The notes below the pieces were generated by a model. It saw nothing but the letters and a program-made list of their open reading frames with translations. It had not been told where the DNA came from and did no database searches. DNA of 64,000 bases, from NCBI RefSeq assembly GCF_003334355.1, contig NZ_QOWP01000023.1, one strand, 5' to 3'. Source of the stretch: Escherichia coli (lineage in GTDB: Bacteria; Pseudomonadota; Gammaproteobacteria; Enterobacterales; Enterobacteriaceae). This document shows, one piece after another, positions 29,077 to 29,437 of this stretch. Numbering within the stretch: the first letter of the stretch is position 1; each line of letters opens with the position of its first letter. Position numbers and translations under genes: made by a program.

Positions 29077-29340
29077 ATGATCGATCTGGAAAACCAGGAA
29101 CGGGAGATTATCAATTTAATGTTCAGCCAGCGTATTTCCTGGCTAGCCGCCGTGCGTATCAGGCATAAATTATCGCTTGCTGAAGTAAGTAAAATGTTAG
29201 GTATCTCGATTAATTCTCTAAAACAGATCGAAAAGACGGAACGGCTTAGCTCAAACATCAAAAGCAAAATGGCAGAAATTTATGGTTGTCCACCAGAGTT
29301 GCTGATATGCCCTTCCTGGATGACGGCTGAACATAAATGA
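29077..29340 (+). CDS. Small XRE/Cro-like helix-turn-helix protein (87 aa); possibly an HTH-only remnant of yjjJ/hipH
   Basis: Shine-Dalgarno-like agggaaggaaat directly upstream of ATG; HTH-like segment LSLAEVSKMLGISINSLKQIEKTER; lies where K-12 has yjjJ. Confidence 0.6.
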   Translation: MIDLENQEREIINLMFSQRISWLAAVRIRHKLSLAEVSKMLGISINSLKQIEKTERLSSNIKSKMAEIYGCPPELLICPSWMTAEHK

Positions 29341-29437
29341 ATAGATTCGTGAATAGATACTTGAATGTATTTTATTTTTTATCTATATGAAAAATAATAG
29401 TAAATCTATAAATCAGTTGCTATTGATGAATAGATAC

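Follow-up and report, generated by a model that had tools for sequence, protein, structure and literature searches.

In the hipBA module of Escherichia coli K-12, the operators O1-O4 (TATCC-N8-GGATA) are bound by HipB, the module's own helix-turn-helix (HTH) protein, which results in autorepression (PMC8262856). HipH (YjjJ), a HipA-like toxin kinase, carries a winged-helix domain fused to its N terminus, and an HTH within its first ~55 residues is known (PMC8262856, PMC11452175). HipH was proposed to be a toxin with a fused cis-acting DNA-binding/antitoxin domain; HTH-mediated DNA binding was proposed and autoregulation postulated, while no operator was described (PMC8262856). Control by c-di-GMP has been mapped to the native promoter of hipH, and HipH activity needs the HTH (PMC11452175). 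A Reg-Seq study of the K-12 yjjJ promoter reported two repressor sites, one of which was assigned to MarA and the other to an unknown repressor (PMC7567609 and preprint). In the searchable literature, no description of the box motif reported below or of any hipH operator was found, and searches with the motif strings retrieved only primers and shRNAs. Regulators of the OmpR/PhoB type on pho boxes and iteron-binding Rep proteins place winged-helix units head to tail on direct repeats with a period of about one helical turn.

The stretch of DNA analyzed here, a window of 64,000 nucleotides (64 kb) from E. coli ATCC 8739 that matches NZ_CP022959 with 100% identity, contains short direct repeats that correspond to a box array found upstream of hipH in other strains. 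Like hipBA, this array comprises several candidate operator copies over the predicted promoter of a HipA-family toxin gene, with the toxin module's own HTH as the predicted binder. Unlike the hipBA palindromes, the hipH boxes are 9-bp direct repeats with a 12-bp step and a distal box ~65 bp upstream, and instead of the separate Cro/XRE-type HipB dimer, the predicted binder is an ArsR-type winged helix fused to the toxin. The predicted winged-helix fold of the binder and the TGAA-N-A half-site core are shared with the 12-2-12 operators of ArsR/SmtB repressors. These repressors bind inverted repeats as dimers, whereas the hipH boxes are co-oriented and form no dyad, no C-terminal dimerization helix is modeled, and the hipH system implies no metal or ligand sensing. 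Compared with the OmpR/PhoB-type regulators and Rep, the fold belongs to another subfamily, the period of 12 bp is longer than their 10-11 bp, a receiver domain is absent, and the array abuts the start codon. As in the toxins with fused domains, hipH is monocistronic and its product carries its own HTH. Beyond the fused-domain proposal, a specific conserved candidate operator can now be named, and in most E. coli it is this operator alone that survives.

The gene order at the locus is ytjB (+), lplA (+, 28029-29045), an 87-aa open reading frame (ORF, +), a stretch of low G+C content, the deoD terminator, deoD (-), and deoB (-). The motif TGAATAGAT(A/T) starts at positions 29338, 29350, and 29427, with all copies in the same orientation. 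The original prediction had placed three copies in an AT-rich stretch between the HTH ORF and the deoD terminator, and this was confirmed by reading the sequence. The G+C content of 29341-29440 is 20%. The copy at 29338-29347 reads TGAATAGATT, and, as had been noted, it overlaps the end of the ORF, with its internal TGA being the stop codon of the 87-aa ORF at 29077-29340. The copies at 29350-29359 and 29427-29436 both read TGAATAGATA; their starts had been given correctly, while the ends assigned to them (29360 and 29437) were one base too long. Within the 64-kb window, TGAATAGATW has four matches against 0.15 expected, and a count of four was reached in 0 of 100 shuffles. Three of these four matches fall within 100 bp, and the remaining one at 5459 is isolated. 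The latter is a lone TGAATAGATT (5459-5468) directly past the stop of a 428-aa minus-strand ORF at 5469-6755 (thrC by size and map position), and, having no partner boxes, it is probably due to chance.

An extra copy with two mismatches, TGAATGTATT, was found at 29362-29371, extending the series 29338/29350/29362 with its step of exactly 12 bp; numerous E. coli strains that share this (XRE/HTH) haplotype have the copy intact as TGAATAGATT. When read on the minus strand, the repeats are 9-bp boxes with the sequence ATCTATTCA, present as three exact copies and one copy with two mismatches (Table 1). The distance of 65 bp from the distal box to proximal box 1 and the proximal step of 12 bp match the geometry of the hipH arrays. 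A larger symmetric operator that would include inverted ATAGAT(A/T) copies at 29380 and 29403 with equal 27-bp spacings was also considered and rejected, as the orientations give no dyad and the copy at 29380 is found only in this strain, with relatives reading TATCCAT; both inverted copies lie outside the pattern. A comparison of both strands of the surrounding region (28900-29700) with the Rfam covariance models gave no match at E <= 1.

Table 1. Coordinates of the hipH box array and neighboring features in the window
Feature	Position	Strand	Description
Proximal box 3	29338..29346	-	ATCTATTCA; nearest to the hipH start codon in hipH-bearing strains; based on base-for-base alignment with the box 3 nt before the yjjJ ATG in K-12-type E. 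coli and E. albertii
Proximal box 2	29350..29358	-	ATCTATTCA; 12 bp from box 3
Proximal box 1	29362..29370	-	Apparently decayed here: ATACATTCA, two mismatches, still in the 12-bp register
Distal box	29427..29435	-	ATCTATTCA; adjoins the deoD terminator; in the hipH sense, its start lies 65 bp upstream of the start of box 1
Vestigial hipH start codon	29332..29334	-	Reads ATG on the minus strand (plus-strand CAT); box 3 ends 3 nt ahead of it
Presumed former hipH core-promoter interval	29371..29426	-	AT-rich; unalignable with the K-12 and E. albertii intervals
Foreign segment	29046..29331	+	41% G+C; stands in place of the 1.33-kb hipH ORF; carries the 87-aa XRE/HTH_3 ORF
deoD terminator hairpin	29443..29466	-	Borders the box region; conserved in both haplotypes; read from the sequence

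A promoter scan detected no consensus promoter on the minus strand of the interval between the distal and proximal boxes. The deoD terminator was not called by a simple terminator scan because its T run is short.

The comparison with strains carrying full-length yjjJ, which had been suggested along with the original prediction, was carried out and proved decisive. The same four boxes were found upstream of yjjJ in those strains. In an alignment, the counterpart of 29332-29499 is the region between deoD and yjjJ of a K-12-type strain, and the boxes, terminator, and start codon are identical or nearly so. In the yjjJ sense, the K-12 arrangement is the terminator, AGT-ATCTATTCA, 56 bp, and ATCTATTCA-AGT-ATCTATTCA-CGA-ATCTATTCA-TTA-ATG. 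The ~55 bp between the distal and proximal boxes differ by about 50% between the window and the K-12-type strain, and in E. albertii the same four boxes stand around another unalignable interior. Homology to the hipH-bearing strains stops at 29332-29334, and the minus-strand frame starting from that ATG is not hipH, so that only the ATG is left here with no hipH ORF behind the array. The replacing segment (29046-29331) has a G+C content of 41% compared with 53-58% in its neighbors, and no similarity of this segment to yjjJ was found on either strand. The suggestion that the repeats could be remnants of a deleted sequence was essentially right, the boxes being the surviving, presumably regulatory, region of the replaced hipH.

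A search of 5426 complete E. coli genomes identified yjjJ (hipH) in 1348 (25%, K-12 type) and the haplotype with the 87-aa ORF in 4058 (75%). Together, these account for 5406 of the 5426 genomes, which is consistent with the two haplotypes being alternative alleles. In the hipH-bearing genomes, yjjJ lies between deoD and lplA on the strand opposite to that of the 87-aa ORF; it had zero plasmid copies, and duplicates were almost absent. The hipH gene is a presence/absence polymorphism in E. coli (25% vs. 75% of complete genomes), and strain ATCC 8739 has lost it, as have about 75% of E. coli.

Several further features of this site were observed. The box interval of ~55 bp is unalignable among the XRE haplotype, E. 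albertii, and the yjjJ haplotype of E. coli, while its flanks are 96-100% identical; either this presumed core-promoter stretch turns over exceptionally quickly or it has been replaced more than once. In lplA, the final 117 nt (28929-29045) differ by 8.5% between ATCC 8739 and the K-12-type strain, compared with 1-4% elsewhere in lplA, ytjB, deoD, and deoB, so the divergent haplotype block reaches into the 3′ end of lplA. The convergent genes lplA and yjjJ of K-12-type strains have directly adjoining stop codons (plus-strand TAG then TTA) and no intervening terminator (contig L002, 1669-1674). In E. coli MB64 (contig L140), an IS200C element is located between deoD and the distal hipH box, with the four boxes and yjjJ being intact.

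The 87-aa ORF encodes an XRE/HTH_3 protein unrelated to YjjJ and is probably cotranscribed with lplA. Its homologues were found only in Escherichia and Shigella, with each fetched copy located at this lplA-deoD site. The possibility that it represents a truncated or inverted yjjJ was rejected, since BLASTP gave no similarity, sensitive blastn gave only chance-level matches, and the ORF lies on the opposite strand within the 41%-GC segment. In other strains the ORF is damaged by an internal stop (2014C-4587), a deletion of ~60 nt (contig L012), or insertions and duplications (contig L011), and many truncated protein clusters are present. It may be decaying or dispensable.

The conservation of the array was examined in ten hipH loci ascertained by protein similarity, comprising K-12-type E. 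coli, E. albertii, an enterobacterium (69% identity), Klebsiella sp. RIT-PI-d, Citrobacter freundii, Salmonella enterica, Cedecea davisae, Erwinia tasmaniensis, an uncultured Pantoea, and Luteibacter pinisoli. A scan of genome contigs with YjjJ had matched only E. albertii, and the further loci were obtained via protein searches and contig look-ups. The array was present in 10 of the 10 loci, consisting of a distal ATCTATTCA and two or three proximal boxes with a 12-bp step, and the last box was usually a few nucleotides before the start codon (14 nt in Pantoea). Proximal box 2 was exact in eight of the nine enterobacterial and Erwiniaceae hipH loci and had one mismatch in Pantoea (L010). The surrounding DNA and gene neighbors vary between the hipH loci. 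In Pantoea and Luteibacter, the gene neighbors are different and the upstream neighbor is not deoD, which indicates that the boxes travel with hipH and not with deoD. The identity of the boxes, their position, their conservation, and their co-travel with hipH were all directly observed, as was the loss of hipH from ATCC 8739.

A metagenome scan for ATCTATTCA-N3-ATCTATTCA yielded at least 120 loci; since these were found through the motif itself, only the ten protein-ascertained loci are unbiased. A HipH homologue starts directly downstream in the same orientation in 25 of the 120 metagenome matches listed, sharing 29-60% identity with the E. coli, Erwinia, or Pantoea proteins (mostly 34-41% with E. 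coli). Many of the hipH-linked matches listed are in contigs with a G+C content of 56-69%, where the chance occurrence of an AT-rich 21-mer is very unlikely. Among the matches listed, a 26th locus contained a hipH fragment, and five more were the E. coli XRE haplotype.

No hipH was present at about 90 of the 120 matches listed, and their downstream ORFs were heterogeneous or absent. No common downstream gene was recognized by inspection among these ~90 listed matches, which were followed by transposase-like, phage-like, membrane, eukaryote-like, or spurious ORFs, and HMM searches of the listed hipH-less matches with HipH and its N-terminal domain returned only one extra fragment. These matches were treated as background plus a few unexplained orphan arrays; among those listed, the high-GC contigs L104, L120, and L086 resemble genuine arrays. 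Arrays of ATCTATTCA (or ATCCATTCA) with 12-bp steps and no hipH in the fetched stretch were observed in L104 (~9100-9260), L120 (~3060-3205), L086, L088, L121, and L099/L124, which are mostly contigs of moderate to high G+C content (about 50-67%), and in L104 at least seven boxes are located ahead of a 297-aa membrane-like ORF. Such hipH-less arrays could be relics like that of ATCC 8739, or trans targets.

The architecture was analyzed in 32 hipH loci, 22 of which were motif-ascertained metagenome loci. In these loci, 52 of the 78 successive box pairs were exactly 12 bp apart, and each locus contained two to six proximal boxes, mostly two or three. Between the end of the last box and the start codon there were 0-24 nt (median 3), in which a Shine-Dalgarno sequence could usually not be recognized. 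Of the 26 loci having an upstream box, 15 had the nearest distal box 65-67 bp upstream of the start of the proximal array. Box copies on the reverse strand with up to one mismatch were found in none of 33 upstream regions.

The best sigma-70 matches, which are consensus matches and not mapped promoters, have a -35 element starting 27-28 nt upstream of box 1 in eight loci, so that the -10 element abuts box 1. This includes the enterobacterial metagenome contig L004, in which the promoter TTGACA-18-TAAATT was also called by the scan tool. In other hipH loci, the consensus matches place the -35 element directly against the array, with the boxes filling the spacer and the -10 element. In both arrangements, a protein bound to the array would be in the way of RNA polymerase. 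Of three hipH loci given to the scan tool, a promoter was called in L004 and none in Salmonella and Luteibacter, and there was likewise no call in K-12; the tool was too strict or too noisy to fix the promoter position. In L004 (850-1830), ~480 bp of REP/BIME-like palindromic repeats and a 163-aa ORF are present between deoD and the hipH boxes.

HipH is the sole component that accompanies the boxes across these taxa and is therefore the candidate binder. In 30 HipH N-termini with 22-80% identity, the recognition-helix residues S25, Q26, S30, and R31 (SQxxxSR) and the wing residue Y50 were invariant, and L22, G43, and R46 were nearly invariant. The invariant recognition helix matches the invariance of the box. 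An AlphaFold2 model of the N-terminal 115 aa of HipH (pLDDT 90.4) comprises a helix-helix-helix-hairpin winged helix followed by a beta subdomain, and no helix was found after the wing, at the position of the ArsR dimerization helix, within the 115 modeled residues. Using Foldseek, residues ~1-55 were superposed at 1.6-1.7 Å on the ArsR/SmtB repressors SqrR, HlyU, CzrA, NolR-DNA, and BigR, with probabilities of about 1 and weak E-values, the latter owing to the small size of the domain. No PDB entry matched YjjJ by sequence. Several HipH relatives have precomputed Pfam matches of the MarR/HTH_24 type and some are named ArsR-family regulators by JGI. The TGAATA core present in every box corresponds to the TGAA(C/T)A half-site of the ArsR/SmtB 12-2-12 operators (PMC8790569 Table 2). 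The main contrary datum is a direct negative: no peaks were obtained when the binding of myc-tagged YjjJ was mapped by ChIP-exo in K-12 (PMC8464067), a result that could reflect a very low native expression or the tag.

Taken together, it is probable that the repeats are a conserved cis-regulatory array of hipH, autorepressed by HipH, which was orphaned in ATCC 8739 after the replacement of hipH. We infer that HipH binds the boxes, that this binding represses transcription, and that the relic no longer has a function. The ancestral layout would have consisted of the deoD terminator, the distal box, ~55 bp containing the promoter, two to six co-oriented proximal boxes with an exact 12-bp step, and the hipH start. 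ArsR-like winged-helix monomers of HipH would occupy the boxes head to tail, one per box, over the region from the -10 element to the start codon, and the distal box might act through looping to, or cooperativity with, the proximal boxes. As a result, transcription of the toxin would be kept low, as is done by the HipB operators in hipBA. The two Reg-Seq repressor sites at the yjjJ promoter and the mapping of the c-di-GMP response to the native promoter are compatible with this mechanism but do not establish it. In ATCC 8739, the hipH ORF was exchanged for foreign low-GC DNA with a small XRE-type ORF on the opposite strand, and the junction falls precisely at the hipH ATG. The array is orphaned if HipH is the binder, since the haplotype of ATCC 8739 (4058 genomes) nearly complements the yjjJ carriers (1348); the boxes would then be an orphan operator drifting in a cell that has no cognate binder.

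The pattern of variation within the array is consistent with such drift. The 44-nt K-12 array is perfect in 1335 genomes, a number near that of the yjjJ carriers (1348), though the yjjJ genes differ by up to 4-5%. Among the sampled genomes with the XRE haplotype, box 1 reads ATCTATTCA (contigs L134 and L012), ATCCATTCA, ATACATTCA (this strain), or ATCCATTCG. E. marmotae has further changes in box 2 and the distal box, and strain 4973 has a mutated distal box. This suggests a decay of the boxes under relaxed constraint in hipH-less strains. The evidence for decay is modest, because the numbers are small, box 1 is also variable among hipH-bearing genera, and ATCC 8739, despite its lack of hipH, retains perfect copies of the distal box and of boxes 2 and 3. 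The boxes are most probably inert in this strain, although they may retain a residual role in the binding of another protein or in antisense transcription into the XRE ORF.

The strongest competing explanation, which we nevertheless regard as unlikely, is that another trans-acting host protein, such as MarA, binds the boxes and that they still function in hipH-less strains. The negative ChIP-exo result for YjjJ (PMC8464067) and the Reg-Seq assignment of one yjjJ repressor site to MarA both favor it, as do the perfect state of three of the four boxes in ATCC 8739 and the intact array in many genomes with the XRE haplotype. Against this reading, the array is essentially restricted to one locus per E. 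coli genome. The array also follows hipH into Xanthomonadales-like and other contigs with 56-69% G+C and altered neighborhoods, where few regulators other than hipH are common with E. coli, and box mutations are more common where hipH is absent. Moreover, the box core suits an ArsR-type helix, and we know of no fit of this core to the MarA box.

The original prediction had offered protein binding as one possible role of the repeats; this general idea stands, while the assignment to the adjacent 87-aa HTH protein does not. That the boxes are operators of this XRE-type protein, possibly co-opted after the replacement, is very improbable, even though they adjoin its ORF, the stop codon lies inside box 3, and the HTH_3 domain is real. 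Boxes precede yjjJ/hipH in K-12-type E. coli, E. albertii, Salmonella, Citrobacter, Cedecea, Erwinia, Pantoea, and Luteibacter, with the 87-aa ORF in none of the fetched loci, and they therefore predate this ORF; identical sites were found in at least nine genera whose loci do not contain it. The boxes are also located 3′ of the ORF instead of in its promoter, and they form direct repeats, not palindromes, whereas XRE dimers normally read dyads. In addition, the ORF is often pseudogenized while the boxes persist, and it has no homologues outside this locus, so that an independent co-occurrence cannot be shown.

It is slightly less probable still that the repeats act in RNA as a 5′-leader element controlling hipH translation. 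The median distance of 3 nt between the last box and the start codon and the lack of a visible Shine-Dalgarno sequence in most loci would fit such an element, but the distal box lies upstream of any plausible promoter, the boxes in the -35/-10 spacer of several loci would be untranscribed, the repeats are not self-complementary, and there was no Rfam match. Finally, an origin of the repeats as chance or slippage products of an AT-rich spacer, or as recombination scars of the hipH replacement, is hardly credible in spite of the 20% G+C of the region and the coincidence of the replacement junction with the end of the array, since 0 of 100 shuffles reached the count, identical boxes occupy the same positions in hipH-bearing relatives with no replacement, and the spacers between the boxes differ while the boxes are identical, contrary to slippage products.

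Returning to the autorepressed hipH array, a more specific version can be proposed tentatively, and we consider it more doubtful than the general one. Here, HipH would be an autorepressor that polymerizes head to tail on the 12-bp repeats and bridges to the distal box, and the binding of c-di-GMP (eLife 2024) would release the repression.

The results are relevant for a HipA-family toxin kinase that is tied to both persistence and c-di-GMP signaling and has no antitoxin gene. What is new is a precise cross-taxon candidate for the hipH operator (ATCTATTCA with a 12-bp step and a distal box) together with a candidate binder, which makes autoregulation testable. The presence/absence polymorphism of hipH matters when results obtained with the K-12 gene are extrapolated to other strains. 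If the c-di-GMP-responsive version were true, the array would be the missing c-di-GMP-responsive element of the hipH promoter as well as the site of the "unknown repressor" of Reg-Seq. Three quarters of E. coli, having lost hipH, would then keep a silent ready-made operator, and the hipH-less arrays elsewhere may mark trans targets.
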